IMG/VR virus record: IMGVR_UViG_2541047681_000005
Length of the DNA: 12,615 nucleotides
Reading direction: 5' to 3' (one strand)
DNA from: a virus
Taxonomy: Duplodnaviria; Heunggongvirae; Uroviricota; Caudoviricetes
Shown piece by piece: positions 1-12,615 of this stretch. The position numbers and the translations under genes were made by a program. Position 1 is the stretch's first letter, and the number at the start of each line of letters is the position of its first letter. Below the pieces are notes generated by a model. That model saw nothing but the letters and a program-made list of their open reading frames with translations, ran no database searches and was not told the DNA's origin.

Positions 1-1230
1 ATGCGCAGAGCACTTAACAAACTGAGTGATACACAGCTAAGGAAAATCAACGGCACACCCGCCCAAAAAACAGCCTTTCTTAATGACGGTGGAAACCTGA
101 GCGTCAGGCATTCAACCAGCGGCCTTTTAACCTGGTATTTCACCTACAGGGCCGGAACGGGAAGGGGAGCACGACCGGAACGGATTAAGCTGGGAAATTA
201 TCCTGATCTGAGTCTGAAAGCTGCCAGGGAAAAAGCGGCACAGTGTCGCGCTTGGCTTGCTGAGGGGAAAAATCCACGTCATGAGATGAATTACACCGTA
301 CAGAAAGCGTTAAAGCCCGTAACGGTTGGCGATGCGCTTACCTACTGGCTTGAGTCTTACGTAAAGGAAAACCGCGTGGATTATGCCGCCCTGAAAAAGC
401 GCCTTAATAATCACGTAATACAGCACATTGGTGCTATGCCGCTGGATAAATGCGAGCTACGGCACTGGCTGGCCTGTTTTGACCAGGTGGCAAAGCGAAC
501 GCCTGTTACTGCCGGATTCTTGCTACAGACGTGCAAACAGGCGCTTAAGTTCTGCCGGAGGCGGCGCTATGCAATCAGCAACGTTCTTGATGATATGAGT
601 GTGGCGGACGTTGGGAAAAAACCGGATATAAGCGAGCGTGTCTTAAGCACCAAAGAACTTGGCGAATTATTGCAGGCACTGGACAAAAAAATATTTTCCC
701 CTTACTACGTCGCACTAATCCGCCTCCTGATTGTTTTCGGATGCCGGACGGTAGAACTGAGGTTATCGGAGATCAGCGAGTGGGATTTTACCGAAATGCT
801 CTGGACCGTGCCGAAAGAACACAGCAAAACGAAGGTGGCAATATTCCGGTCCATACCGGAAGCAATACTGCCGTTCGTCACGCAGCTGGTGGAGCAGAAC
901 AGGCACACGGGCTTATTGCTGGGGGAAGTGAAACAGGAAACAAGCGTGTCGCAGTACGGCAGATTAGCGCACAGGAGGCTAAAACACCCTCACTGGTCAC
1001 TGCATGACATCCGGCGCACCTTTACAACGATGCTGAACGATTTAGGCGTGGATCCTCACGTCGTGGAGCAGCTTACAGGTCATCAGATGCCAGGGATGCA
1101 ACGAGTCTATAACCATTCCCGTTATCTGGATGCGAAACGTGACGCGCTGGATATGTGGACGGAGCGGTTAGGGATACTGGCGGGAACACATGAAAACGTA
1201 ACCACATTGCCAATAGCCAGAGAAATATAA
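1..1230 (+). CDS. int: Tyrosine site-specific integrase, P4-type
   Basis: 409-aa ORF starting at window base 1. N-terminal arm-binding-like region (LNDGGNLSV...WYFTYR...LGNYPDLSLKAARE) and C-terminal catalytic region with HDIRRT (H-x-x-R) and a terminal VYNHSRY tyrosine motif. Upstream RBS not visible because the window starts at the ATG. Confidence 0.9.
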   Translation: MRRALNKLSDTQLRKINGTPAQKTAFLNDGGNLSVRHSTSGLLTWYFTYRAGTGRGARPERIKLGNYPDLSLKAAREKAAQCRAWLAEGKNPRHEMNYTVQKALKPVTVGDALTYWLESYVKENRVDYAALKKRLNNHVIQHIGAMPLDKCELRHWLACFDQVAKRTPVTAGFLLQTCKQALKFCRRRRYAISNVLDDMSVADVGKKPDISERVLSTKELGELLQALDKKIFSPYYVALIRLLIVFGCRTVELRLSEISEWDFTEMLWTVPKEHSKTKVAIFRSIPEAILPFVTQLVEQNRHTGLLLGEVKQETSVSQYGRLAHRRLKHPHWSLHDIRRTFTTMLNDLGVDPHVVEQLTGHQMPGMQRVYNHSRYLDAKRDALDMWTERLGILAGTHENVTTLPIAREI

Positions 1231-1257
1231 TTTTTTTTGCGATTTTTCAGGATGCGG

Positions 1258-1317
1258 ACAACGTGAAACAACGAGACACAACGACGAACAACAAGGAACA
1301 AAATGGAACAACGGGTT
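1258..1317. repeat. Six phased 10-bp direct repeats (ACAACGnnnn) just downstream of int
   Basis: ACAAC(G/A) begins at 1258, 1268, 1278, 1288, 1298 and 1308, an exact 10-bp period. A second CA-rich tract with CACAA/CCCAA repeats lies at 1511..1565, just upstream of alpA. Confidence 0.6.
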
Positions 1318-1595
1318 AAAAATCAGCCATCGTAATAACCATTTGATTTTTATAGGTGTACTGTTTTTTTATACACTGGCGAATCACTCTTAAAAATATG
1401 TAAAAAAGGCGTAAAAGTAAAATTTTATGCCTTTGCATCATAATGAATTAAAAGAGTTTTTATTCTCATTCCCCCTGCTTCTGTAAAACGACCGCCGCCA
1501 GTGTTTGCCATTCCACAAACACCCTGACACAATCCGACACAACCCAACCCAATAATCCACCCAATGACTCTTTAAGAAACAACAAAGGGGGAATT

Positions 1596-1784
1596 GTGTT
1601 AAGCACAGATCGCTTTATACGTGAAAAAGAATGTCAGCAACTTACAGGCCTGAGCCGCTCATGTCGGTACCGCCTGGAAAAAGCCGGACAATTCCCATCA
1701 CGGCGTAAGCTGGGCGGTCGTTCCGTTGGCTGGTCTTTATCCGAAGTTCTGGCATGGAAGGACAGCTGCGAGGCAGTTCACTAA
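1596..1784 (+). CDS. alpA: AlpA-family transcriptional regulator (excisionase-like winged-helix protein)
   Basis: 62-aa ORF with GTG start at 1596 preceded by RBS AAAGGGGGAA. Sequence (FIREKECQQLTGLSRSCRYRLEKAGQFPSRRKLGGRSVGWSLSEVLAWK) matches the AlpA/prophage CP4-57 regulatory protein pattern. Position directly after a P4-type int is typical. Confidence 0.85.
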   Translation: MLSTDRFIREKECQQLTGLSRSCRYRLEKAGQFPSRRKLGGRSVGWSLSEVLAWKDSCEAVH

Positions 1785-1836
1785 TCAGGCTGGCGGCACA
1801 CAGCCGCCACCCATCCACTAATACAGAGATCTAACC

Positions 1837-2196
1837 ATGAATACTGGATATTCTCCCGAACAAGGGCGGGGCTTCGTTCGTCCTGAAAAACAGAATCTGC
1901 AAAATTTTGCCGAAATTATTCCGGTTATTTCCGGCCTTACTGGCGGGAGTGAAACCAATATTGTTAACGCCAGAGCGTTGCAGATGTTTGATGATAAAAA
2001 GGGAGTAAATTTAACTTACACCCCTGACGGCAATCAGAATATGAGCATTATCTCTGAGTCAGGTTTCTACAAACTAATAAAAACAAAAAGCGCCCCGTTG
2101 CCGGAGCGCCTTTGTGAACAATTAACCTACTGCGCAAAAAATGAATCTGAGCAGTGGGATTATATCAACCATGTGGAGAAGCGCCACAATTGCCGA
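1837..2196 (+). pseudogene. Possible decayed Bro-N/antirepressor-like remnant (N-terminal part of a 428-aa composite ORF)
   Basis: The first ~115 aa (DGNQNMSIISESGFYKLIKTKSAPLPERL) weakly resemble the Bro-N/KilA-N motif (ESGLYSLI...). The remainder of ORF 1837..3123 is Cys/Arg/Ser-rich and low in complexity, crosses a divergent promoter region and overlaps a better-supported minus-strand gene, so the long ORF is not one real protein. Confidence 0.25.
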
Positions 2197-2543
2197 ATAA
2201 CGGGCAAAACAAAGGCCACCCGCTACGGTGGCCCCTCGACACAAGCTACACGTTATCCCCAACGCATGAGCATTGCCAACAATGCCACATTTGCGGCTGG
2301 TGGGCAATGCAATCAGTCTGGTTCAGTTCGTTGCCATACCTGCAATGAGCGCTTTTCCCTGTACTCTTTAAGGAATTGCTCAAGGGCAAAAGCACATGGC
2401 GCGAATCTTTCTGATTCATGCTCTATCTTTCTGCGCCGTCTTTTCCGTGCCGGTGATAATGTTTTGGTCAATTCTTTATCGGTCATTGTGTTGTCCTGCA
2501 TAGCAATGCGCCGTAGTTACTCACACCACGGCGCTGGTGATGG

Positions 2544-2723
2544 TTACTCCTGCTCTTTGGCCTTGCGGCGCTGGCGGCGTTTGATTTCGCCGCGCATGGC
2601 TGCGTTTATAAACTGTCCCGTGCTTTCGCCTTCTTCTTTCACGTTCTCCATGCCTTCAATAATTTCATGGGCAATACGTGCAGTTACAGATTGTGATTTT
2701 GCATTCTTTGGACCCGTTGCCAT
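2544..2723 (-). CDS. Hypothetical small basic protein (59 aa), divergently transcribed from the left operon
   Basis: Internal ATG at 2721..2723 (complement) preceded by RBS GAGGGG with 6-nt spacing; product MATGPKNAKSQ...EIKRRQRRKAKEQE. Candidate -35/-10 (TTCAAA/TATATT) on the minus strand, overlapped by operator-like repeats. Family not recognised. Confidence 0.45.
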   Translation of the reverse strand: MATGPKNAKSQSVTARIAHEIIEGMENVKEEGESTGQFINAAMRGEIKRRQRRKAKEQE

Positions 2724-2744
2724 GTTTAACCCCTCATGTTTTTG

Positions 2745-2826
2745 GTGTAAGACAATATACACGAAAAAAAAATATTTTGAAGGGTTGACGTGTAAGACAC
2801 CATTGTTTTACATTGTGTCTTACACC
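2745..2826. promoter_or_regulatory. Divergent promoter region with three copies of an 11-bp operator-like motif GTGTAAGACAC
   Basis: Motif at 2745..2755 and 2790..2800 (direct) and 2815..2825 (inverted). Candidate + strand promoter -35 TTGACG (2785..2790) and -10 TTACAT (2808..2813), 17-bp spacer; one operator copy sits in the spacer and the inverted copy at the predicted +1. Candidate minus-strand promoter overlaps the first copy. Confidence 0.55.
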
Positions 2827-2922
2827 TTATTGATGAAAGGCACAGAAACGACGAAACCCCGCACTGTAGGAGCAGTAACGGGGCTTCTAACCACCAACGA
2901 TAGCAACAGTATCGAGGTAGCT

Positions 2923-3123
2923 ATGAGAAATCATACCACACACCCGAAAGGGCGGGACTCGCACAACCTGAATAAATACATCTGGCGTTTTATCGCCCTG
3001 AGCACGGCACAACCGCGCGTGATTACCATTGAGGCCACCAGCGAACAGGAAGCACGCCAGCAATCTCCGGCTGGCTGCGTGATGGTATTTGCTGCCCGTA
3101 TTCGTCAGGGGGTAGGCTTATGA
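2923..3123 (+). CDS. Small protein (66 aa), first gene of the left operon; possibly Icd-like, otherwise hypothetical
   Basis: ATG at 2923 with RBS GAGGT upstream; product MRNHTTHPKGRDSHNLNKYIWRFIALSTAQPRVITIEATSEQEARQQ.... Its stop overlaps the next ATG (ATGA). The Icd-like assignment is a recollection of P4-like prophage annotations and is unverified. Confidence 0.45.
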   Translation: MRNHTTHPKGRDSHNLNKYIWRFIALSTAQPRVITIEATSEQEARQQSPAGCVMVFAARIRQGVGL

Positions 3124-3350
3124 GCCAGGAAATCACACTACAACAGGCAGCAGAACGCGCCCACCAAATCGAAGTTATTTGCGCACTGGCAGAGGATTAC
3201 CCTAGCATGATGACCGACAGCGAATCAGGGGCAATCATCGGCTTACTTAAACGCCTTAGCGGTGAGGTCTGCGTATTCCTGAGCGATGAACAGGAAAGAA
3301 GAACGCTTATTTCTAACGAAAAAAAATGCGGAGGGGTACATGTGCAATAA
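3120..3350 (+). CDS. Hypothetical protein (76 aa)
   Basis: ATG at 3120 overlapping the upstream stop (ATGA), RBS AGGGGG upstream; acidic product. No family recognised. Confidence 0.5.
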   Translation: MSQEITLQQAAERAHQIEVICALAEDYPSMMTDSESGAIIGLLKRLSGEVCVFLSDEQERRTLISNEKKCGGVHVQ

Positions 3351-3570
3351 AACCACACCGGACGCAGCAGAAGAAGCAATGCAAATACTGATACGTGCGC
3401 TCGTTGATGTTACCCACATGGTGGAGATTATGGAGAGAAAATCACAGTCGGAGCACGACAAAAGAAAACTTAAAACAATAAAAATAATTGCCAAAAACTC
3501 GCTGATAAAAGTTACAGACATCCTTAATGAGGACATTAAAAGAATAAGGGAGAAAATTTGTGATGCATAA
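3340..3570 (+). CDS. Hypothetical protein (76 aa)
   Basis: ATG at 3340 preceded by RBS GGAGGGG, overlapping the previous gene by 11 nt. The longer six-frame ORF 3286..3570 probably starts at this internal ATG. No family recognised. Confidence 0.5.
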   Translation: MCNKTTPDAAEEAMQILIRALVDVTHMVEIMERKSQSEHDKRKLKTIKIIAKNSLIKVTDILNEDIKRIREKICDA

Positions 3571-3790
3571 AATCCCTTTTGAAGTATTAATCCACTCTGA
3601 AAACGCATTAATTAAAGCACGCGAAATGAATGCGTTGTTAATTAAATTAATTGAAGTGCCGGAAGGTGGCGAAGATCATTCATCATTAATGTTTGCCGCT
3701 GTTCAGACATTATTGACACCTGTTATTGATGAACTCAATAAGGCTATGGCAATTCACGAGAATAATAAAGCGCCCCACACCGGAGAATAA
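3563..3790 (+). CDS. Hypothetical protein (75 aa)
   Basis: ATG at 3563 (GTG at 3560 also possible) with RBS AAGGGAG upstream; overlaps the previous gene by 8 nt. No family recognised. Confidence 0.5.
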   Translation: MHKIPFEVLIHSENALIKAREMNALLIKLIEVPEGGEDHSSLMFAAVQTLLTPVIDELNKAMAIHENNKAPHTGE

Positions 3791-3795
3791 AAATA

Positions 3796-4095
3796 ATGAA
3801 ACTTAAATATTCTGGCTTAACTGCCAGTGGCAAAACTCGCACTAAATTCATGCGCGGTGATATTTACCGCGACCAGTACGGCGGCACGGTAATGATTAAG
3901 GGCGTGGAGGAACGGCGCGTAACCTACCGTCGTGAAGGCTACGAATATGATTGCGTGATGCCTGTTTATCAGTTCGATCGTGATTTTTCTCTGGTGCAGG
4001 CCGTACCGCGTAACGTGCCCACCAGCAGGGAGAAAGCACGCGCCAATATTCAGGAAATAAAAAAGATGCTTAACGTATTCAGGGGTAAGAAATGA
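3796..4095 (+). CDS. Hypothetical protein (99 aa)
   Basis: ATG at 3796 with RBS GGAGA 9 nt upstream; stop overlaps the primase start (ATGA). No family recognised. Confidence 0.55.
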   Translation: MKLKYSGLTASGKTRTKFMRGDIYRDQYGGTVMIKGVEERRVTYRREGYEYDCVMPVYQFDRDFSLVQAVPRNVPTSREKARANIQEIKKMLNVFRGKK

Positions 4096-5846
4096 AACTG
4101 GCACCGAACGTAAAAAAACAACCACGCGGAATAAAACACAAAGACACAGAGGTAATTATTTTCGCGGGTAGTGATGCGTGGTCACATGCAAAACAGTGGC
4201 AGGAGCAGGACGGCCCCGCATCCGGCGATAATGTGCCGCCTGTGTGGCTTGGGCCAAATCAGCTTGCCGAACTTGATGCGCTGAAAATTGTTCCGGATGG
4301 GAAAAAGCGCGTAAGGCTGTACCAGGCCGGAGAACTGGATTTAGTGGAGACCAAAAAGATTGGTCAGAAGCTGGCGGCGGCAGATATTCAGGACGCAAAT
4401 TTTTACCCTGATGGTATGCACGGTCAGAAGGTGGAGAACTGGCGCGAATATCTGGCCCGTGAGCGCCAGAATCTTTCTGATGGTCTGGTCATTGAGCTTC
4501 CGGTAAAGCAAAAGGCGCAACTTTCGCAGATGGCGGACAGTGAGCGCGCGCAGCTGCTTGCCGATCGCTTTGATGGCGTTTGCGTACATCCTGAAAGTGA
4601 AATCGTTCACGTATGGCGCGGCGGGGTATGGTGTCCGGTCAGCACAATGGAACTTAGCCGCGAAATGGTGGCGATCTATTCAGAGCACAGGGCCACTTTC
4701 AGCAAGCGCGTAATCAATAACGCCGTGGAAGCGTTAAAAGTTATTGCCGAACCAATGGGCGAGCCGTCCGGCGATTTGCTGCCGTTCGCCAATGGTGCGC
4801 TTGACCTGAAAACGGGGGAATTTTCCCCGCACACGCCGGAGAACTGGATCACCACGCACAACGGCATTGAGTACACGCCACCAGCACCAGGGGAGAACAT
4901 CCGCGATAACGCGCCAAACTTTCATAAATGGCTTAAGCACGCAGCCGGAAAAGACCCGCGCAAGATGATGCGTATATGTGCCGCGCTGTACATGATTATG
5001 GCGAACCGGTACGACTGGCAGATGTTTATTGAGGCCACCGGAGACGGCGGGAGCGGTAAAAGTACATTCACGCACATAGCCAGCCTTCTGGCAGGGAAAC
5101 AGAACACGGTAAGCGCTGAAATGACATCGCTTGATGATGCTGGTGGACGTGCGCAGGTTGTCGGGAGTCGTCTTATCGTCCTGGCTGACCAGCCGAAATA
5201 TACAGGCGAAGGAACGGGCATCAAGAAAATCACGGGCGGTGACCCCGTGGAAATTAACCCGAAATACGAAAAGCGTTTCACGGCTGTAATCAGGGCGGTG
5301 GTGCTGGCGACCAACAATAACCCGATGATATTCACCGAACGGGCCGGAGGTGTGGCACGTCGTCGCGTGATTTTCCGTTTCGACAATATCGTCAGTGAGG
5401 CCGAAAAAGACAGGGAGCTACCGGAAAAGATCGCGGCTGAAATCCCTGTCATTATCCGCCGATTGCTGGCGAACTTTACCGACCCTGAGAAGGCACGGGC
5501 TTTACTACTGGAACAGCGTGACGGTGATGAAGCACTGGCAATAAAGCAACAGACGGATCCGGTTATTGAGTTTTGCCAGTTCCTGAATTTTCTGGAGGAA
5601 GCGCGCGGCCTGATGATGGGGGGCGGTGGCGATTCAGTGAAGTACACGACCAGGAACAGCCTTTACCGCGTCTATCTGGCGTTTATGGCATACGCAGGCA
5701 GGAGCAAACCGCTAAACGTAAATGACTTTGGAAAGGCTATGAAGCCTGCCGCAAAAGTTTACGGACATGAATATATTACGCGGAAAGTTAAGGGGGTAAC
5801 GCAGACTAACGCAATAACAACAGACGAGTGCGACGCGTTTTTATAA
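4092..5846 (+). CDS. Replication primase/helicase, P4-alpha / D5-like family with P-loop NTPase domain
   Basis: 584-aa ORF with RBS AGGGG upstream; Walker A motif GDGGSGKST, followed by a hydrophobic strand (LIVLADQP) consistent with Walker B. Position after int-alpA and immediately before an iteron cluster matches satellite pri-rep genes. Confidence 0.9.
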   Translation: MKLAPNVKKQPRGIKHKDTEVIIFAGSDAWSHAKQWQEQDGPASGDNVPPVWLGPNQLAELDALKIVPDGKKRVRLYQAGELDLVETKKIGQKLAAADIQDANFYPDGMHGQKVENWREYLARERQNLSDGLVIELPVKQKAQLSQMADSERAQLLADRFDGVCVHPESEIVHVWRGGVWCPVSTMELSREMVAIYSEHRATFSKRVINNAVEALKVIAEPMGEPSGDLLPFANGALDLKTGEFSPHTPENWITTHNGIEYTPPAPGENIRDNAPNFHKWLKHAAGKDPRKMMRICAALYMIMANRYDWQMFIEATGDGGSGKSTFTHIASLLAGKQNTVSAEMTSLDDAGGRAQVVGSRLIVLADQPKYTGEGTGIKKITGGDPVEINPKYEKRFTAVIRAVVLATNNNPMIFTERAGGVARRRVIFRFDNIVSEAEKDRELPEKIAAEIPVIIRRLLANFTDPEKARALLLEQRDGDEALAIKQQTDPVIEFCQFLNFLEEARGLMMGGGGDSVKYTTRNSLYRVYLAFMAYAGRSKPLNVNDFGKAMKPAAKVYGHEYITRKVKGVTQTNAITTDECDAFL

Positions 5847-5860
5847 TTTTTTGTAATTGC

Positions 5861-6086
5861 TGTCTACCCTGTCTACCTGAGTAAAGAAAAATACATTTAA
5901 TTCAGTGCATTAAGTTAGGTAGACAGCCTTTTTTTACTGTCTACCCACTATCTACCCTCTCTACCTGATTTTACCTGAATCAGACAGGGAGGTAGACACG
6001 GGGTAGATAGTGGATAAAAGCACTCTACCCCGCTGAAAGCCGCGCCATTACTGGCATGAGGGCCACTAAGGTAGATAAGGTAGACA
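5861..6086. repeat. Iteron cluster, putative replication origin
   Basis: About 11 copies of the core TCTACC / GGTAGA in both orientations (TGTCTACC at 5861, 5870, 5938; ATCTACCC 5950; CTCTACC 5959 and 6023; GGTAGACA 5918, 5991, 6079; GGTAGATA 6002, 6070), with an AT-rich stretch at 5880..5915. Directly downstream of the primase stop. Confidence 0.7.
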
Positions 6087-6134
6087 AGGGGAGGCACAAC
6101 TCAAAACTTTTTAAACGAGGGGGTAAAAATAAAT

Positions 6135-6413
6135 ATGCACACTTCAGGGAAATTTAATAAATCACTCAAAAAACGCAGAGACAGAACAGAACCGAAATAT
6201 CGCGCGTTAGACATGACAGAGCACGCTTTAAAGGTGGCAATCAGAACGATAGACCGCCACGCGGGGGAAGGATACGCGAAAGCACATCCCGAACTGATAA
6301 GCGCATTCATGACCACGACGGCGGCAAATTTTGCCACGCTGACAGAGCGGGAGATTGCCGAAGCGGAACAGGTAACAACCATCAACGTTAAAACCGGAGA
6401 GGTGGAATCATGA
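6135..6413 (+). CDS. Hypothetical protein (92 aa)
   Basis: ATG at 6135 with strong RBS GAGGGGG; stop overlaps the next start (ATGA). No family recognised. Confidence 0.55.
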   Translation: MHTSGKFNKSLKKRRDRTEPKYRALDMTEHALKVAIRTIDRHAGEGYAKAHPELISAFMTTTAANFATLTEREIAEAEQVTTINVKTGEVES

Positions 6414-6832
6414 CAGCACAGATAGCAGCTTACGGGCGGCTGGTGGACGACCCGCAGGTAAAACAGACCAGCAAGGGCACACCGATGACGCTGGCGCGTA
6501 TGGCGGTCCCCCTTCCGTGCAGCCAGGCAGATGACGGAACGGCGACGATGTGGTTATCCGTCCTGGCATTTGGCAGACAGGCCGAAGCACTGGAAAGGCA
6601 CCGCAAGGGTGAACTCCTGAGCGTGGCGGGTAACATGCAGATCAGCCAGTGGACTGGGCAGAACGGAGAAACGCGGCAGGGCTGGCAGGTTATCGCAGAC
6701 AGTGTAATCAGTGCGCGAACGGCGCGACTGGGCGGCAAAAAAGGTCAACAGGGCCAGGCTACTGACGCGCTGAACAGGGCAAAACAACAGGCGGGGAATG
6801 ATGATCCGTACGGGGATAACATACCGTTTTAA
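6410..6832 (+). CDS. SSB-like single-stranded DNA-binding protein (OB fold with SSB-type C-terminal tail)
   Basis: 140-aa ORF with RBS GGAGAGGTGG. N-terminal region aligns by eye with the E. coli SSB OB fold (GRLVDDPQV vs GNLGQDPEV; WLSVLAFGRQAEALERHRKGELLSV vs [25 protein letters not shown]). Gly/Gln-rich linker and C-terminal DDPYGDNIPF resemble the SSB DDDIPF tail. Confidence 0.65.
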   Translation: MTAQIAAYGRLVDDPQVKQTSKGTPMTLARMAVPLPCSQADDGTATMWLSVLAFGRQAEALERHRKGELLSVAGNMQISQWTGQNGETRQGWQVIADSVISARTARLGGKKGQQGQATDALNRAKQQAGNDDPYGDNIPF

Positions 6833-6848
6833 GCGACGAGAGACAGAA

Positions 6849-6870
6849 GCCGGAGCAATCCGGCTTTTTT
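6849..6870 (+). terminator. Rho-independent terminator after the SSB-like gene
   Basis: Hairpin GCCGGA-GCAA-TCCGGC followed by six T (6865..6870). Confidence 0.7.
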
Positions 6871-6908
6871 ACGGGTCCTCCTGGCGGGGTGGGCCTGAAC
6901 ACGGGGCG
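6871..6908 (+). other. Degenerate cos-like sequence (pseudo-cos)
   Basis: ACGGGTCCTCCTGGCGGGGTGGGCCTGAACACGGGGCGGGAAGCGCGG resembles the cosQ/cosN segment at 9313..9360 (ACGGGTCCTTTCCGG...ACGGGGCGGCGACCTCGCGG), and is preceded by the same terminator hairpin, but lacks the intact GGGCGGCGACCT core. Confidence 0.45.
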
Positions 6909-7044
6909 GGAAGCGCGGAAAAAAGCGCATTTTTGTGATTTTATCGTCATCATCATCATGAGCGTAATTTATTGTTTTTAATTGTTTTGATGCAAAAAAG
7001 ATGATGGTTGTGGTTAATTTTCGTTCGACATCTTTGCAGGCAGA

Positions 7045-7087
7045 TAAAAAAGCCCGATAAGGTCAGAGGTGGCTTATCGGGCTTTTG
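7045..7087. terminator. Bidirectional hairpin terminator candidate
   Basis: 11-bp perfect stem AGCCCGATAAG / CTTATCGGGCT with 11-nt loop, A-run upstream and T-run downstream. Confidence 0.5.
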
Positions 7088-7163
7088 CATATGAGGCTTT
7101 TTGGTGCACTGACACACATGAGCGGGATCATCATTTCATAATTTGCAACACAACTCAATATCA

Positions 7164-7212
7164 TTGTACAAAACGCAATCCTGATTATAATCAGAGCTGG
7201 ATGAACATCCAG
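7164..7212 (+). promoter_or_regulatory. Candidate promoter of the capsid operon with overlapping palindromic operators
   Basis: -35 TTGTAC (7164..7169), 16-bp spacer, -10 TATAAT (7186..7191). The -10 lies inside a perfect 14-bp palindrome CTGATTATAATCAG (7181..7194), followed by inverted repeat CTGGATG-AA-CATCCAG (7197..7212). Confidence 0.5.
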
Positions 7213-7247
7213 TTATGATTTTTTAAGTCGAAGAGGAATTTCTTACT

Positions 7248-7454
7248 ATGGCTGAAGAGAAAAAAGGCGGTGTTTCGGTGTACATAAGCCCCGAAATCGT
7301 GGAGGTGCTCAAGCAGCGCCACAAAAAAAACTATGAGGCTGGCGTGGCGGCTGGACTGGATCCGCTGATGACGCCGGAGCCGTCGATAGGTTCACTTGTA
7401 CGCTCTTATTTACTTGCGGCGCTTGGGATGCATAAAAATTATGGGGGTGAATAA
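7248..7454 (+). CDS. Hypothetical protein (68 aa), translationally coupled to the major capsid gene
   Basis: ATG at 7248 with RBS AGAGGA; its stop TAA overlaps the capsid ATG (TAATG). No family recognised. Confidence 0.55.
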   Translation: MAEEKKGGVSVYISPEIVEVLKQRHKKNYEAGVAAGLDPLMTPEPSIGSLVRSYLLAALGMHKNYGGE

Positions 7455-8509
7455 TGGCAGGCAAAGCAACGGCACTTAACACTAACCAGCTTTTCATGTA
7501 CCTGAATCGCGGGGATATTGCGGATTTTAAATTCAGCCCTCTGTTTACTACGCTGTTTTTCCCGAACGTGGCGACATTCAGCACGCAAAACATCATGCTG
7601 GATACCCTGGACATTGAAGAAGTCACCATGTCGGCGTTTTGTTCGCCTATGGTGGGTAGCCAGGTTCAGCGCGATAAAGGGTACGAAACCAGCACGATTA
7701 AACCTGGCTACATGAAGCCAAAGCACGAAATCGATCCAACGAAAACCATCATGCGCATGGCTGGAGAAGATCCGGCACAGCTTAACGACCCTACCTATCG
7801 CCGTATGCGCCTGATTACTGGCAATATGCGCCGCCAGATAAACGCCATAAAAGCGCGCGTGGAATGGCTGGCGGTAAATGCGGTAACGACCGGAAAAAAC
7901 ATCATTGAGGGCGAAGGCATAGAGCGCTATGAAATCGACTGGAAGATACCGGAAAAAAACATCATAGAGCAGGCCGACGGGAAAAAATGGTCAGAGCAGG
8001 ACAAAGAAACCCACGATCCAATCTATGATATCGAACTATACGCCGATCAGGCTGGTTGCCCCGCAAACGTCATGATTATGGGCGCTGAGGTATGGCGAAC
8101 GTTACGCAGCTTTAAAAAATTCCGTGAGCTGTACGATCTTTCCCGTGGTTCAGAATCCGCCGCCGAACTGGCCTGTAAAAACCTGGGCGAAGTGGTGAGC
8201 TTTAAAGGCTATCTTGGTGATCTGGCCCTTATCGTCTATTCCGGCAAATACACTGACAGCGATGGTACCGAAAAATATTTCCTTGAGCCTGATTTGCTGG
8301 TCCTGGGCAACACCAACAATAAAGGGCTGGTGGCCTATGGTGCGATAATGGATCAGGAAGCGGTAAGAACGGGCGCAACACAAAACATGTTTTACCCGAA
8401 AAACTGGATTGAGGACGGCGATCCGGCGATTGAGTACGTGCAGACACACAGTGCACCGCAGCCGGTACCGGCAGATATTCGCAAATTTGTTACCGTCAAA
8501 ATTGGTTAA
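7454..8509 (+). CDS. Major capsid protein, lambda gpE family
   Basis: 351-aa product aligns by eye along its length with lambda gpE (341 aa): [163 protein letters not shown] upstream. Confidence 0.9.
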   Translation: [351 protein letters not shown]

Positions 8510-8521
8510 CGGGGGGATTCT

Positions 8522-8857
8522 ATGGACACTCCATACATTGAGTTATTTGCAGGCAGTCAGCAGGTCGCCACGACGCTGGTACATTTTGCCGCTGATGCTG
8601 GCGTTATTCAGGAATTTACCCCGCTGATGCTGGCAGACAATGGCGAGTTTAAGCCGTGGGATGGTCAGGAATCTGGCAAGGCTGTTTATCTGACCTCGTA
8701 CCCTGTGGACACGTCAAAGCAGAAATCAGCACAGTGTTACAAGACGGGGATTTTCAATATTGCCGCCGTTAACTGGCCTGAGAGCGTCGACACCGATGCG
8801 AAAAAATGCGCCGCCTTTGCGGGTTCTGGCGTATCCGTTCAGCCGCTGGCCCGATAA
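8522..8857 (+). CDS. Head decoration protein, lambda gpD family
   Basis: 111-aa product (lambda gpD is 110 aa) with TPLMLADNGEFKPWDG vs TPLMLDTSSRKLVAWDG and YKTGIFNIAAVNWPESVDTDAKKCAAFAGSGVSVQ vs [44 protein letters not shown] upstream. Order is capsid then decoration, the reverse of lambda (D then E). Confidence 0.85.
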   Translation: MDTPYIELFAGSQQVATTLVHFAADAGVIQEFTPLMLADNGEFKPWDGQESGKAVYLTSYPVDTSKQKSAQCYKTGIFNIAAVNWPESVDTDAKKCAAFAGSGVSVQPLAR

Positions 8858-8869
8858 GCAGGGGGAACG

Positions 8870-9283
8870 ATGGCAACGAATGAAAGCGTCATGACGCTAC
8901 CGCTGGCGAGTAAATTTAAAGCCGAAGCGCGGGCAATGGCTGACAGAGGTTTATCAACCTACGAGGCCGTATATCAACTCAACAAACTGGAAGAGCAGGA
9001 CAAGCCGCGCGCTGATGCGATTATGGCGCTTCATGAACATAACGACTATCAGCCGCTGTTACGTGCAATGGCAAACGTGCCATGTATTAGCGTCGATAAT
9101 GCTCGTGAAATCCTGAACATGACCATAGAGCAGGAGCGCCCAAAGGTTGCGCCGGAGCTTACCGCAGCCTTTGAAAACTTTATGGACATGCACAGCCCGA
9201 AAGCCGTATCACCCGGCATGGCATACGACGGCAGAAACCAGGGCGATGAAGGCGACGTCGATCGCATACTGAAAACCATCTGA
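8870..9283 (+). CDS. Hypothetical protein (137 aa), last gene before cos
   Basis: ATG at 8870 with RBS AGGGGGA; followed by a strong terminator. No clear similarity to lambda FI or other remembered head proteins. Confidence 0.6.
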   Translation: MATNESVMTLPLASKFKAEARAMADRGLSTYEAVYQLNKLEEQDKPRADAIMALHEHNDYQPLLRAMANVPCISVDNAREILNMTIEQERPKVAPELTAAFENFMDMHSPKAVSPGMAYDGRNQGDEGDVDRILKTI

Positions 9284-9289
9284 CATAAG

Positions 9290-9312
9290 GCCGGAGAAAT
9301 CCGGCTTTTTTT
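9290..9312 (+). terminator. Rho-independent terminator after the capsid operon
   Basis: Hairpin GCCGGA-GAAA-TCCGGC followed by seven T (9306..9312); near-identical to the hairpin at 6849..6870. Confidence 0.75.
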
Positions 9313-9445
9313 ACGGGTCCTTTCCGGCATATGGACCCGTTACGGGGCGGCGACCTCGCGGGTTTTCGCTATTTATGACGTTTTTCCGTGAAGGTGACAC
9401 CACCACCACTTGATTAATATTTAACCATGCGGTTAAGGTAACATT
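9313..9445 (+). other. Lambda-type cos site (cosQ-like, cosN, short cosB) upstream of the TerS-like gene
   Basis: TACGGGTCCTTTCCGG...GTTACG|GGGCGGCGACCTCGCGGGTTTTCGCTATTTATGA closely matches the lambda cohesive-end region as remembered. Predicted 12-nt cohesive end GGGCGGCGACCT at 9345..9356. One R-site-like element (CGTTTTTCCGTG, about 9381..9392) and an AT-rich stretch follow. Confidence 0.75.
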
Positions 9446-9886
9446 ATGATTGATAAAGCTTGTTTTGTAAGTCAGCAGGAAATAGCTGAACATTTCAAGG
9501 TTAACAGAACCACTATTCGCGCATGGACCAAACAGGGGATGCCGTATCTTAATGCGGATCGCGGAAAGTCTGGCGGTTATCACATCGGGCATACATTGCT
9601 TTGGTCTTCAGGTAAAAGCCGTCTTGAGGCCATCAGATATCACGTAGAAACCAGTGCGCTGGAAAAAATTATGTTTGCCAGGCTGCTTTCATCTGAGCGT
9701 GACGAGTACTCCAGTGAAGAAACAGAACATCGATTTGATGAAGGTTTGCAGATTTACGGCTATTCACCGGAAGATGTGAGCAAGGCACGAAATAAAATGG
9801 CTGGCTTTCTGGCTGGGTGGCGTCATGCCGTAAGCGTTCGCCGTGCCAGCATGGAACAATCAGTCGTTACAGAACAGCAAAGTTAA
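9446..9886 (+). CDS. Small terminase-like protein, lambda Nu1-type DNA-binding N-terminus with divergent C-terminus (TerS/Rpp-like)
   Basis: 146-aa ORF about 90 bp downstream of cosN, as Nu1 is in lambda. N-terminus QQEIAEHFKVNRTTIRAWTKQGMPYL aligns with Nu1 KKQLADIFGASIRTIQNWQEQGMPVL (winged HTH). Shorter than Nu1 (181 aa) and the C-terminal region does not resemble Nu1's. Confidence 0.7.
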   Translation: MIDKACFVSQQEIAEHFKVNRTTIRAWTKQGMPYLNADRGKSGGYHIGHTLLWSSGKSRLEAIRYHVETSALEKIMFARLLSSERDEYSSEETEHRFDEGLQIYGYSPEDVSKARNKMAGFLAGWRHAVSVRRASMEQSVVTEQQS

Positions 9887-9915
9887 AAATCACTTTCTGT
9901 TACGCCATCAAATAC

Positions 9916-10012
9916 GCAATACAACAACCACGTATTTTTTTAAAACTATTTGATTCAATTAGCATTTTTTTATTTTTAGCATCAAAAAAACACTATCAGG
10001 TTGTTGTATTGC
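9916..10012. repeat. 14-bp perfect inverted repeat flanking a 69-bp AT-rich spacer
   Basis: GCAATACAACAACC (9916..9929) and its reverse complement GGTTGTTGTATTGC (9999..10012); a further direct ACAACAACC copy lies near 10060. Spacer contains T/A runs and repeated TAGCATTTTT. Confidence 0.55.
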
Positions 10013-10090
10013 TCTTTATTTTTACTTAGTTATCAAATGGATATGACAAACAATTAAACAACAACCTCCCTCTAAAAAAGCTCATAAATA

Positions 10091-10145
10091 GCGAAAAACC
10101 GCGAGGTCGCCGCCCCGTAACGGGCCATAATTCCAGGAAGGACCC
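10091..10145 (-). other. Second cos-like sequence in inverted orientation (cosQ/cosN-like, no recognisable cosB)
   Basis: Reverse complement of 10091..10145 reads CGGGTCCTTCCTGGAATTATGGCCCGTTACGGGGCGGCGACCTCGCGGTTTTTCGCTATTTATGA, about 85% identical to cos at 9313..9380 including an intact GGGCGGCGACCT. No R-site-like element or TerS gene follows it on the minus strand. Confidence 0.6.
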
Positions 10146-10179
10146 GACGACACCAGACTATCAGAACGATGGGGGCACA

Positions 10180-10461
10180 ATGACAGAAGCCGAAATACTG
10201 CGATTAATCCGCCGCGTTGCCGGAATCAGCCAGCAGCATGACGAACAGGCCACGCAGCCGGACAGCGTGACCGCTGAAAATTATGTGCGTGTTGTTGCTG
10301 AGGTGATGCGCCGTGATGGTATCCAGCTTAATGATGTTGATATGCGCGACATACGGATCCGCGTTCTGGAAATGCTGGCCTACAATCGCCGCGTTGAACT
10401 GTATCGGGAGAAAGAAAAAATAACGTACCACTGGAAGAAGCCGGAGCGGTTGCGGCGGTAA
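10180..10461 (+). CDS. Hypothetical protein (93 aa)
   Basis: ATG at 10180 with RBS GGGGGC upstream; charged product (MTEAEILRLIRRVAG...). No family recognised. Whether it belongs to the satellite or the junction region is unresolved. Confidence 0.5.
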   Translation: MTEAEILRLIRRVAGISQQHDEQATQPDSVTAENYVRVVAEVMRRDGIQLNDVDMRDIRIRVLEMLAYNRRVELYREKEKITYHWKKPERLRR

Positions 10462-11154
10462 CTGGTTGATATTTTCGAAATTCGCCAGCGGCGAACATCG
10501 GGGAAACCAGCCTAACCCGTTGATATTTTCGGAAACCTCAATTTGAGGAAGTCGGCGCGGTAACTCGCTGAACTTAAAGCAAAGCGCAAAATTGCGCTTG
10601 CTGAATAATCATTATGATTACGCAGATGATTAAGGAATGACCGAAGGCGGAAATTCGCCTGTGGTTAATGGGGGAGTTGCAGATCTGCAACTCGACCATG
10701 AAACTACGGAAACTACCCGTAGTTTGGGTAGTAAGAGTAACACCCAGATTTTGGGGCTTACTCGTGATACCCAAATTTGGGGTATCGGTGGCAACCATAA
10801 CGACTTTCGTTACGGTTGATGCTTTTACCCCATTGGGGGAAAGGTATTACGATAATCATAACACCTACCGAACAGGTAAAGCCCACCAGCCTGATTAACG
10901 TTTAACCGGAAAAAAATTCCGGTAGGTGGGGATCCCCATATAGACATTAACGCCCCTCATGAATTGGTGCGCTTCCCCCTGGAAAGATGATCCGCCTGTA
11001 TATTTCTTGTGTCTATTTGTTCCACGTTGTTTCATACGGTGCACCGAACGGTGTAGTTAATGGTGTAGTCAATTTGCGATTTTTGGCACTTTTTCAGTGT
11101 AGATTATTTAATTAAATCAATGGTTTGTCTTGATATAGTGATAAAAGGACATAT
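10462..11154. other. Palindrome-dense non-coding tract between the last satellite ORF and phoQ (possible attR region or structured RNA)
   Basis: No convincing ORF. Direct repeat TAAC-nGTTGATATTTTCG-AAA at about 10459 and 10513. Hairpin-forming palindromes roughly every 30 bp, e.g. AAGCGCAAAATTGCGCTT, GTTGCAGATCTGCAAC, GATACCCAAATTTGGGGTATC, CCGGAAAAAAATTCCGG, TGGGGATCCCCA, CGGTGCACCG. Tandem GGTGTAGT(T/C)AAT at 11050..11073. Confidence 0.4.
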
Positions 11155-12615
11155 TTATTCATCTTTCGGCGCAGAATGCTGGCGACCAAAAATCACTTCC
11201 ATCCGCGCACCGCCCAGCATGCTCTCTCCGGCGACGATTTTACCCTCATATTGCTCGGTGATTTCGCGGGCTACCGCCAGCCCCACACCTTGCCCAGGGC
11301 GTAAAGTATCAACCCGTTGACCACGGTCGAAAATGACCTCTCGCTTGCTTAATGGAATACCGGGGCCATCATCCTCGACCACAATATAGAGATGCTCGTC
11401 GGTTTGCCTTGCAGAAATTTCGACAAACTCGAGGCAATATTTACAGGCGTTATCCAGCACGTTGCCCATCACTTCGACAAAATCATTCTGCTCACCAACA
11501 AAGCTGATTTCTGGCGAGATATCGAGAGAGATATTGACCCCTTTGCGTTGATACACTTTGTTCAGCGCCGAGGTGAGATTGTCCAACAGTGGCGCGACCG
11601 GATGCAGCTCGCGGCTAAGCAATGTCCCGCCGCGCATACTGGCACGATGCAGGTAGTAGCCAATTTGCTGTGAAATGCGGCTGATTTGCTCCAGCATTAC
11701 CGGCTCAGCATCACTGACGCTCATCTTCTCACTACGCAGAGAACGCAGCGTACTTTGCAGCACCGCCAGTGGCGTTTTCAGACTATGGGTCAGGTCGGTG
11801 AGCGTTGTACGATATTTGTCGTAACGTTCGCGTTCACTTTTTAACAGTCGGTTCAGGTTTCGTACCAGACTGGTCAGTTCTCGCGTTGTGGCTGGATTGA
11901 GCAATTCACGGTTATGTTCTTCCAGTTCGCGGACTTCTTTTGCCAGGGCTTCGATGGGGCGTAAACTCCACCAGGCGGCGACCCACAGCAGCGGGATCAC
12001 TAACAGCAGATTGGCTGAGAGCACATAGATAAACCAGCTCCAGACCATATAGGAACTTTTTAGCTCCACCGGAATGGTATCCACCACCACAATGGTTAAC
12101 TTTGGCATCCGCGATGTTGCCGGGTAGACGTTTACCGCCACCGAGTGGGTCATCTCCGCGTCGTCATCATCTTCCCGCACTTCCTGCAACTGTTGCTGTA
12201 TCGAATGATCTCCACTCAGCAAGAGGCTGGTATCGTTAACATCCGCTTCAATTTCATGAAAACCATTCGATTTCAGCCAGTCAGGCTGGATCATCTTCAT
12301 CAGCCAGGGCACGTCACGTTGCGCCCATAAAAGCTGCCCGTTCTCATCATAAATTAGTGTCATCGTGGGGCTTTGCTTGTCGATATTTTCGGGTAACTCG
12401 ACATGCAACTTATTGTTTTCCCACTTCGCAAGGGTATAGAACAGATTGCTCTCGCCACGTAACAGCCGAAACGTGGTTTTATCGAAACTGACGCTATAAC
12501 CGATCAGCGCAACCATTCCGTAGGCAAGCGAAAGCACCAATACTACTGCTGCCGTTGCTAACAGAAAACGTACCCGCAGCGAGAGCGGGAAAAAAAGATG
12601 CAGTAATTTTTTCAT
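11155..12615 (-). CDS. phoQ: Sensor histidine kinase PhoQ (PhoP/PhoQ two-component system), complete
   Basis: 486-aa minus-strand ORF whose ATG is the last codon of the window. Two transmembrane segments, periplasmic acidic cluster EDDDDAE, H-box [15 protein letters not shown] and G-box DDGPGIP; reads as full-length Escherichia/Shigella-type PhoQ. Confidence 0.97.

Follow-up and report, generated by a model that had tools for sequence, protein, structure and literature searches.

The window, as we call the whole stretch of 12,615 nucleotides that was analysed, almost certainly carries an allelic variant of EcCICFT073, a classical Gram-negative PICI at the roxA/phoQ site, and this island includes an intact four-gene capsid module that is strongly constrained by purifying selection. 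EcCICFT073, the PICI of E. coli CFT073, was reportedly described by Fillol-Salom et al. in 2018 (ISME J) and 2019 (Mol Cell). By 2018-2019 the element had been described together with its homologues of capsid and decoration proteins, both cos sites and the protein that redirects packaging, and because the capsid-like genes and the packaging trick have been published the island as such is a rediscovery. An intact, constrained set of capsid, decoration and scaffold-like genes is kept by about one in nine of the complete E. coli genomes, on satellites that do not need the set for laboratory spread; the role of this module, once found, would show whether classical and capsid-forming PICIs mark the two ends of a continuum.

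In a megablast comparison the CFT073 chromosome (NC_004431.1, 1379160-1389208) is 93.6% identical to the island at 87% coverage, and a collinearity comparison matched both the succession of roxA, island and phoQ and the gene order within the island. Both elements have the same insertion site, the same gene order, two inverted cos sites devoid of lambda cosB, RppA proteins that are 99% identical and a capsid protein near-identical to the 3BQW structure. The island in the window differs from EcCICFT073 in that a few small early ORFs have been replaced in mosaic fashion, perC is missing between ssb and the capsid module, and the spacers near cos2 and ahead of attR are divergent; the mosaic patches lie at 3369-3764, 6739-7045 (the one without perC), 9883-10073 and 10556-10875. 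The first-pass annotation was right to propose a PICI-type satellite of lambdoid helpers that borrows portal, protease, terminase and tails from them, and the EcCICFT073 type, which it had raised as a possibility, proved to be the right one, as shown by DNA identity, gene order, RppA and capsid protein. It had let the island run to 11154; the true right end is the attR core CGGTGTAGTTAATGGTGTAGT at 11049-11069, a direct repeat of a sequence upstream of int. The corresponding attL lies outside the window, approximately 26-46 nt upstream of int, where the repeat was found in a related genome (locus L001), and the 21-nt direct repeats define an element of 11,095 bp. Genomes with the same insertion have roxA/pepT on one side and phoQ/phoP/purB on the other, and these core host genes adjoin the island directly, which answers the concern that portal or TerL genes of the same element might lie just outside the window.

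The proposed int-alpA-primase-ori core is present, as seen with Pfam, TIGR01613 and an iteron scan. The left end is formed by a tyrosine integrase gene on the forward strand (1-1230; Pfam Arm-DNA-bind_3 and Phage_integrase), and the same gene adjoins roxA in loci L001 and L002. It is followed by an AlpA-family activator (1596-1784, forward; Pfam Phage_AlpA, E 3e-18), which in EcCICFT073 is induced by the helper and switches on excision and transfer (PMC6092414). Four small early ORFs (3120-3350, 3286-3570, 3560-3790 and 3796-4095, all forward; the last a DUF4222 protein) precede the primase/replicative helicase gene pri-rep (4092-5846, forward; Pfam D5_N, DUF5906 and Pox_D5, and the P4-family primase model TIGR01613). 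Directly 3' of it, in the position described for PICIs (PMC6092414), the replication origin at 5857-6091 consists of about 12 iterons of the forms TGTCTACC and GGTAGACA in both orientations. The region 6135-6832 (forward), which has a match to phrog_1231, holds a 92-aa ORF and the gene for a single-strand DNA-binding protein (SSB, 6410-6832; Pfam SSB, E 4.9e-15). The sequence features of a classical PICI are all found: int with a direct-repeat att site, an alpA-type activator after int in a mostly co-oriented gene set, an own primase or replication initiator followed by an iteron origin, a size within the range of about 10-15 kb between core host flanks, the absence of genes for lysis, tail, portal and TerL, and an Rpp protein combined with helper-type cosN/cosQ and a non-helper cosB.

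The capsid module comprises a 68-aa ORF, a gpE-like capsid gene, a gpD-like decoration gene and a gene for a scaffold protein resembling the C-terminal part of Nu3, all on the forward strand. The first, orf68 (7248-7454; phrog_3255), overlaps the start of the capsid gene and is conserved in nine loci with a dN/dS of 0.27; a single-sequence model predicts two helices, for which a fold search returned no significant match. The major capsid homologue (7454-8509), equivalent to c1499 of CFT073, bears out the earlier assignment, with 44% identity to lambda gpE across 327 aa (Pfam Phage_cap_E, E 5.9e-52), and is near-identical to PDB 3BQW, deposited as 'putative capsid protein of prophage' (E 8e-236); among deposited phage capsid proteins none is more than 48% identical to it. 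The assignment of the decoration protein (8522-8857, equivalent to c1500) holds as well, with 36% identity to lambda gpD and a Pfam HDPD match at E 1.3e-17, and its best solved relative is the head decoration protein PDB 1TD0, with structures of lambda gpD also among its PDB matches. A scaffold had been listed among the missing genes, wrongly so, as the 137-aa product of orf137 (8870-9283), probably c1501 of CFT073, is a homologue of the C-terminal region of Nu3/gpC (phrog_1999, E 1.4e-61; C-terminus of phrog_53). Residues 117-200 of lambda Nu3 match phrog_1999 (E 2.7e-26), hhalign relates orf137 to Nu3 (74%, E 2.7e-5) with the protein P0041 bridging the two, and in phage 204576 the orf137 match sits just upstream of D/E. 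The module is closed by a hairpin with a T-run, GCCGGA-GAAA-TCCGGC-TTTTTTT (9290-9312, forward), which was read off the sequence and is not listed by the pattern scan.

Portal, protease, TerL and tail genes are missing from 1-11154, as had been claimed: the ORF map leaves the coding space fully assigned, and Pfam and PHROG scans found none of them. The architecture had been called unusual, a description that does not fit the capsid gene carried by 21 of the 29 reference Gram-negative PICIs (PMC10111431).

The lambda-type cos was confirmed, and there are two of them: the cohesive end GGGCGGCGACCT occurs as two exact, inverted copies, at 9345-9356 on the forward strand and at 10104-10115 on the reverse strand, with conserved cosQ/cosN flanks at both sites and with lambda cosB (R sites) found at neither. 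The first site, cos1 (9313-9445, forward), consists of a cosQ/cosN core (9313-9378) that includes the 12-nt cohesive end and of a PICI-specific cosB-equivalent region that extends up to rppA, while cos2 (10082-10146, reverse) is a second, inverted cosQ/cosN core. In EcCICFT073 the second site has been described and both are functional (PMC6092414), the function of cos1 being documented in two studies (PMC6092414, PMC6739421).

The ORF at 9446-9886 (forward) had been read as a Nu1-like TerS. It is RppA, the redirecting phage packaging protein: 142 of its 144 residues are identical to c1503 of CFT073, residues 2-125 match RppC (PDB 6HLK, E 5.7e-31), and by its sequence it belongs to the Rpp proteins. 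Its sequence also contains R21-T22, the conserved alpha-2 DNA-reading residues of RppA (PMC6739421). With Nu1 it shares only the 64-aa N-terminal wHTH domain (30% identity), and the full-length similarity expected of a Nu1-type TerS, which would extend to the C-terminal region for contact with TerL (gpA), is lacking. Sibling E. coli PICIs (for example those of clone D i14, O157:H7 and O26) carry the same four-gene module at 92-96% DNA identity followed by lambda cosN, but their next gene encodes a true Nu1 homologue, a 180-aa protein that is 37% identical to lambda Nu1 over 178 aa and has no similarity to the RppA at 9446-9886; in some of these siblings a RepA-type helicase replaces the D5/P4-type primase. 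RppA and RppC bind the helper TerS and retarget it to the PICI cos; c1503 itself is the RppA that binds lambda and phi80 TerS, prevents the phage from being packaged and is needed for packaging of the PICI through cos1 (PMC6739421), and the helper terS is essential for EcCICFT073 (PMC6092414). The claim that the satellite supplies its own packaging specificity therefore stands insofar as the specificity is satellite-carried; its source is RppA acting with the helper TerS and not a satellite TerS (PMC6739421).

By homology to EcCICFT073, the life cycle of the window allele would most likely proceed as follows. A lambdoid helper would turn on alpA, upon which the island would be excised by int and replicated via its own primase-helicase and iteron origin. 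RppA is predicted to heterodimerise with the Nu1-type TerS of the helper, such that phage cosB would no longer be recognised and the RppA-TerS complex would instead recognise the satellite cosB beside the lambda-type cosN/cosQ of cos1. Satellite concatemers would end up in phage-sized heads, packaged with the terminase, portal, capsid and tail of the helper, and the packaging of the helper itself would be blocked. Four copies of an 11.1 kb unit amount to 44.4 kb or about 92% of the lambda genome, and as lambda packages roughly 75-105% of its genome length such a tetramer would fit the packaging window. Helper induction, high-frequency transfer and helper interference have been shown for the CFT073 allele (PMC6092414, PMC6739421).

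What the capsid module contributes to this cycle is less easily explained. With lambda as the helper all packaged EcCICFT073 DNA was phage-sized, as judged by the size of the DNA, and deletion of c1499 or c1500 affected neither transfer nor interference (PMC6092414); putting a marker in place of c1499 likewise gave 'no phenotype' (PMC6893505). By analogy with the CFT073 allele, the capsid and decoration genes would be dispensable for both processes with those helpers that have been tried. Among 5,426 complete E. coli genomes the module is nevertheless intact in approximately 590; of the 598 genomes that carry it, 590 have it at full length. All four ORFs are full length in nine divergent loci with dS values of up to 0.9-1.8, and the module is under purifying selection: dN/dS comes to 0.11 for capsid and decoration and to 0.27-0.29 for orf68 and orf137. 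The published 'no phenotype' is consequently not the whole story, and the current model is incomplete for these four genes. The module also occurs in PICIs with other integrases and att sites, and in one PICI that is embedded in the late region of a prophage (locus L007).

Tentatively, the module may have a conditional role, a reading that is possible and falls well short of being probable. It could provide a backup shell when helper E is limiting or has been interrupted, the situation of helper-embedded PICIs, broaden the range of usable helpers, yield particles that escape capsid-sensing host defences, or interfere with non-helper phages. Purifying selection and wide distribution are consistent with such a role, as is the occurrence of the module in the prophage-embedded PICI, and the backup-copy idea has been suggested by Mageeney et al. 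(PMC10111431). Against it, the island in the window is chromosomal and does not reside inside a helper, and none of the PADLOC defence models matches orf68 or orf137. A more specific form, which we consider rather doubtful, is that of a shell kit, from which the satellite would build full-size T=7 shells on the helper portal, with natural helpers, with helpers in which E is disrupted or limiting, or in capsid-sensing hosts. Some transducing particles would then combine a satellite capsid with the portal, terminase and tail of the helper, which would place the island midway between classical PICIs and cf-PICIs; both the published finding of phage-sized DNA and the laboratory dispensability are compatible with this.

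The first-pass annotation had favoured a partial capsid-forming satellite, in which the gpE- and gpD-like proteins (to which the scaffold can now be added) form an own, perhaps smaller shell on a helper portal and packaging relies on an own TerS. In its favour, the scaffold-like, capsid and decoration genes form a coherent, co-adapted set that is kept intact in some 590 genomes at a dN/dS of 0.11, sibling PICIs have a full-length Nu1-type TerS in the rppA slot, and with at most 48% identity between the capsid protein and deposited phage capsids, mixed assembly with the helper gpE is not obviously expected. We regard it as very unlikely all the same, given that loss or replacement of c1499/c1500 leaves EcCICFT073 transfer undiminished (PMC6092414, PMC6893505), that the packaged DNA is all phage-sized with lambda (PMC6092414), and that the supposed TerS is RppA, which depends on the helper TerS (PMC6739421). 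The small-capsid version is largely refuted, as it is contradicted by these same results in the 94%-identical EcCICFT073 (PMC6092414, PMC6893505), and the lambda-like length of the gpE-type protein gives no reason for a smaller T number. That the module is a decaying, now functionless remnant of a cf-PICI or of a late region captured from a helper, as the deletions without phenotype (PMC6092414) and the cycles of late-gene capture and loss proposed for PICIs by Mageeney et al. (PMC10111431) might suggest, is highly improbable in view of four ORFs that remain full length across nine divergent loci with dN/dS values of 0.11 and 0.27-0.29, a full-length module in 590 of 598 carriers, and its presence across PICIs with different integrases and att sites.

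Compared with other satellites, the island shares an int-alpA-rep core and a satellite-encoded capsid gene with the cf-PICIs. The EcCIEDL933 type of these was reportedly described by Alqurainy et al. in 2022/2023. Of the two, only cf-PICIs encode everything for head formation and packaging (protease, portal, head-tail connectors, HNH, TerS and TerL) and make their own small capsids; the head set of the island is limited to capsid, decoration and Nu3C-like genes with no room for more, and Pfam and PHROG found protease, portal, connector or TerL domains in none of its ORFs, which excludes it from this class. A P4-like class was likewise rejected: the sid, psu and delta families were not found by Pfam/PHROG, the cos is of the lambda and not the P2 type, and only the primase C-terminal domain is held in common. 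SaPIbov5 Ccm and PmCI172 also involve a satellite homologue of the helper major capsid protein, and both are associated with small capsids, Ccm redirecting capsid size; EcCICFT073-type islands, unlike them, are packaged in heads of full size and can do without their capsid gene. With lambda the island shares E (44%), D (36%), the Nu3 C-terminal region (by profile), the cosQ/cosN core including the exact 12-nt cohesive end, and an RppA wHTH similar to the Nu1 DNA-binding domain. It lacks lambda A, W, B, the C protease, FI, FII, the cosB R sites and the C-terminal part of Nu1, which RppA does not have, and its head genes run E-D-Nu3C as opposed to C/Nu3-D-E in lambda.

Two further ORFs lie outside these modules. 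The long open frame at 1837-3123 (forward, 428 aa, no Pfam match) is probably not one real protein; as judged from what RefSeq annotates in the collinear parts of L001 and L002, it spans the remains of BRO-N, lies opposite a YlcI/YnfO gene on the minus strand (2544-2762) and terminates in an Icd-like segment (about 2923-3123). Beyond cos2, a conserved 93-aa ORF (10180-10461, forward; phrog_1561, E 3.1e-57) is also present in CFT073.

The island in the window is an allele of the published PICI EcCICFT073. In a megablast comparison with complete E. coli genomes, the chromosome of CFT073 (NC_004431.1 1379160-1389208) matched it with 87% coverage, 93.6% identity and an identical gene order, and closer alleles were found at the same site in other strains. 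The matched CFT073 region is EcCICFT073 itself, for which a capsid homologue (c1499), a decoration homologue (c1500) and two cos sites have been described (Fillol-Salom et al. 2018, PMC6092414). The window differs from EcCICFT073 in mosaic patches (3369-3764, 6739-7045, 9883-10073 and 10556-10875); CFT073 carries a gene for a PerC-family regulator, perC, between ssb and the capsid module (9300-9548 of the CFT073 locus L002), whereas the window has none at 6739-7045. In other relatives perC lies close to the right end instead (12615-12917 in L006). The first-pass annotation regarded the architecture as an unusual, partial capsid-forming strategy; both element and architecture are already known. 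Its observation was largely real apart from two annotation errors, an RppA protein labelled as a small terminase subunit (TerS) and a scaffold-like gene that was missed. What remains of interest is solely the conservation of a module of capsid, decoration and scaffold-like genes despite the lack of a published phenotype for the capsid and decoration genes.

The ORF map reveals a single co-oriented gene set on the plus strand (1-11154). Pfam, PHROG and NCBIfam scans identified a tyrosine integrase (1-1230), an AlpA regulator (1596-1784), a D5_N/P4-type primase-helicase (4092-5846), and a 92-aa ORF and an SSB (6135-6832), with remnants and small ORFs at 1837-4095. Directly 3' of the primase gene, about a dozen iterons (TGTCTACC/GGTAGACA, in both orientations, 5857-6091) constitute an origin-like region, and the int-alpA-primase-ori core is present as originally described. 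In the capsid block, a 68-aa ORF (7248-7454) comes first and is followed by the genes for a Phage_cap_E capsid protein (7454-8509) and an HDPD decoration protein (8522-8857) and by a 137-aa ORF (8870-9283); downstream lie genes for a 146-aa wHTH protein (9446-9886) and a 93-aa ORF (10180-10461), followed by the host gene phoQ on the minus strand (11155-12615). A 428-aa open frame without a family match (1837-3123) crosses a BRO-N remnant, enters an Icd-like segment and has a YlcI/YnfO gene antisense to it (2544-2762, minus strand); it probably stays open by chance and does not encode a genuine protein. A tRNA scan and Rfam detected no tRNAs or RNA families in the window, PADLOC matched no defence model to the 68-aa or 137-aa ORF, and a pattern scan for promoters and terminators gave a signal at background level.

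Domains of portal, protease, large terminase and tail proteins are absent from every ORF, as the first reading had held, and no unassigned space is big enough to accommodate one. The attL site is outside the window because the window begins at the integrase start codon. In L001, a genome with the same insertion, a 21-nt sequence (CGGTGTAGTTAATGGTGTAGT) is located 27-47 nt upstream of int and is repeated at 11049-11069 of the window; this repeat at either end delimits an island of 11,095 bp, ending approximately 85 nt before phoQ. The flanks in both L001 and CFT073 are host genes, roxA and pepT on the left and phoQ, phoP and purB on the right, with no head genes just outside the window, which excludes a prophage fragment or a cf-PICI with head genes beyond it. 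In the cf-PICI paper EcCICFT073 serves as the ‘classical’ contrast to elements encoding a complete head.

The product of 9446-9886, previously taken for a Nu1-like TerS, is RppA. Only its 64 N-terminal residues align with lambda Nu1 (30% identity), whereas residues 2-125 match the RppC structure (6HLK/6HN7) with an E-value of 5.7e-31, and 142 of 144 residues are identical to the 144-aa CFT073 protein encoded at the same position. RppA is c1503, with 144 residues; the wHTH of Rpp proteins imitates the DNA-binding domain of Nu1, and the heterodimer of Rpp and helper TerS abolishes recognition of the phage cos while Rpp confers recognition of the PICI cosB, the helper terS remaining essential (2019 Mol Cell, PMC6739421). 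PICI packaging requires R21-T22 of RppA (PMC6739421), and both residues are found in the window's protein. The description as TerS suits sibling PICIs that share this capsid module, where the rppA slot holds a true Nu1 homologue, a 180-aa protein with 37% identity to lambda Nu1 over 178 residues and no similarity to the RppA of the window. This Nu1-type small terminase follows lambda cosN in L012 (12235-12777) and in the related loci L008, L009 and L011 (from ~2742); one position is thus occupied by either of two packaging-specificity genes, rppA or a full-length Nu1-type small terminase.

The lambda-type cos reported earlier is in fact duplicated, with the exact lambda cohesive end GGGCGGCGACCT at 9345-9356 (plus strand) and 10104-10115 (minus strand). 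In alignment with lambda cos, both sites are conserved through the cosQ/cosN core and for about 22 nt past the nick on its right side, beyond which both diverge completely, where the R sites of lambda cosB would be. The sites cos1 (9313-9445) and cos2 (10082-10146) are mutually inverted, so oriented that each turns its cosB-equivalent side towards rppA. According to published work, deletion of cos2 raises transfer.

The proposed gpE-like and gpD-like identities held in direct comparisons. The capsid protein shares 44% identity with lambda gpE across 327 aligned residues and is near-identical to PDB 3BQW, a ‘putative capsid protein of prophage’ (E 8e-236). Its best capsid match among 50,697 phage records has no more than 48% identity, and by sequence comparison it represents a separate lineage inside the gpE family; this distance marks it as an old satellite lineage and not a recent capture. 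The decoration protein has 36% identity to lambda gpD, and among solved structures the head decoration protein 1TD0 is nearest to it. The 68-aa ORF overlaps the beginning of the capsid gene, the two sharing an ATGA (7451-7454). This ORF has no Pfam or NCBIfam match and, although lambda gpW is likewise 68 aa long, shows no similarity to it, so that a gpW assignment was rejected. Single-sequence AlphaFold predicts an extended N-terminus followed by two helices (pLDDT 74.5); Foldseek found no significant fold match in the PDB (best E 1.8) and did not support the impression of a ribbon-helix-helix.

The 137-aa ORF (8870-9283) is remotely homologous to the C-terminal, scaffolding region of lambda Nu3/gpC, a relationship that required profiles and a bridging protein to uncover. 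It is a member of phrog_1999 (E 1.4e-61) and has a further match to the C-terminal end of phrog_53, a protease-scaffold family; residues 117-200 of lambda Nu3 match phrog_1999 with an E-value of 2.7e-26. A 195-aa Nu3-like protein from an exhaustive search (P0041) aligns with both, and profile-profile comparison gave a 74% probability (E 2.7e-5, 108 columns). Direct BLASTP against lambda Nu3 was negative, which makes the relationship remote. In its sole match among deposited phages, phage 204576, the gene lies just upstream of D and E homologues; wide protein searches returned relatives nearly all from E. coli. We found no evidence supporting the RefSeq name ‘phage head-tail connector protein’ that it occasionally bears, and no mention of the Nu3 relationship in the publications consulted. 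The first-pass claim that protease and scaffold are both lacking therefore stands for the protease but not for the scaffold, and the satellite thus combines scaffold-like, capsid and decoration genes.

The suggestion that the satellite shell proteins build a smaller capsid is contradicted by published experiments. With lambda as helper, all DNA packaged from EcCICFT073 was phage-sized and the authors ruled out capsid-size redirection; deletion of c1499 or c1500 left interference and transfer unchanged, and transfer persisted with a tetA marker in c1501 (PMC6092414), probably the 137-aa ORF. EcCICFT073 encodes a capsid homologue yet uses normal-size capsids, at least with lambda (Dokland 2019, PMC6893505). 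In later literature we found no function ascribed to c1499-c1501. By analogy with the CFT073 allele, for which the steps have been shown, helper-dependent induction of alpA in the window's allele would lead to excision and then self-replication of the island; an RppA-TerS heterocomplex would target cos1, and the helper's terminase would package satellite concatemers into full-size, helper-built heads while the helper is blocked. Four copies of the island amount to 44.4 kb or ~92% of the lambda genome, and three to 33.3 kb or 69%, which is below lambda's usual lower packaging limit.

The 2-kb module block (7248-9283) occurs in 598 of 5,426 complete E. coli genomes (~11%), at full length in 590 of the 598 and with 91-99.9% identity. 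It is also present in PICIs with other integrases and att sites (L006, at tRNA-Pro), with a different replication protein (L012) or lying within the late region of a prophage (L007). The window and each of eight related loci have all four ORFs intact (9/9), and mean dN/dS by the Nei-Gojobori method is 0.11 in both the capsid and the decoration gene and higher in the 68-aa ORF (0.27) and the 137-aa ORF (0.29); all four genes are under purifying selection. A capsid gene is found in 21 of 29 reference Gram-negative PICIs, and a backup capsid has been suggested as its role where a PICI interrupts the helper's E gene (Mageeney et al. 2023, PMC10111431). The L007 element (1777-12000) is of the same satellite type but more divergent, its capsid module being 81.5% identical in DNA. 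It is located within a prophage, bordered on one side by lambda-like head genes (FI, head-tail joining) and on the other by P2-like baseplate and tail genes, and resembles the helper-embedded PICIs that Mageeney et al. (2023) described.
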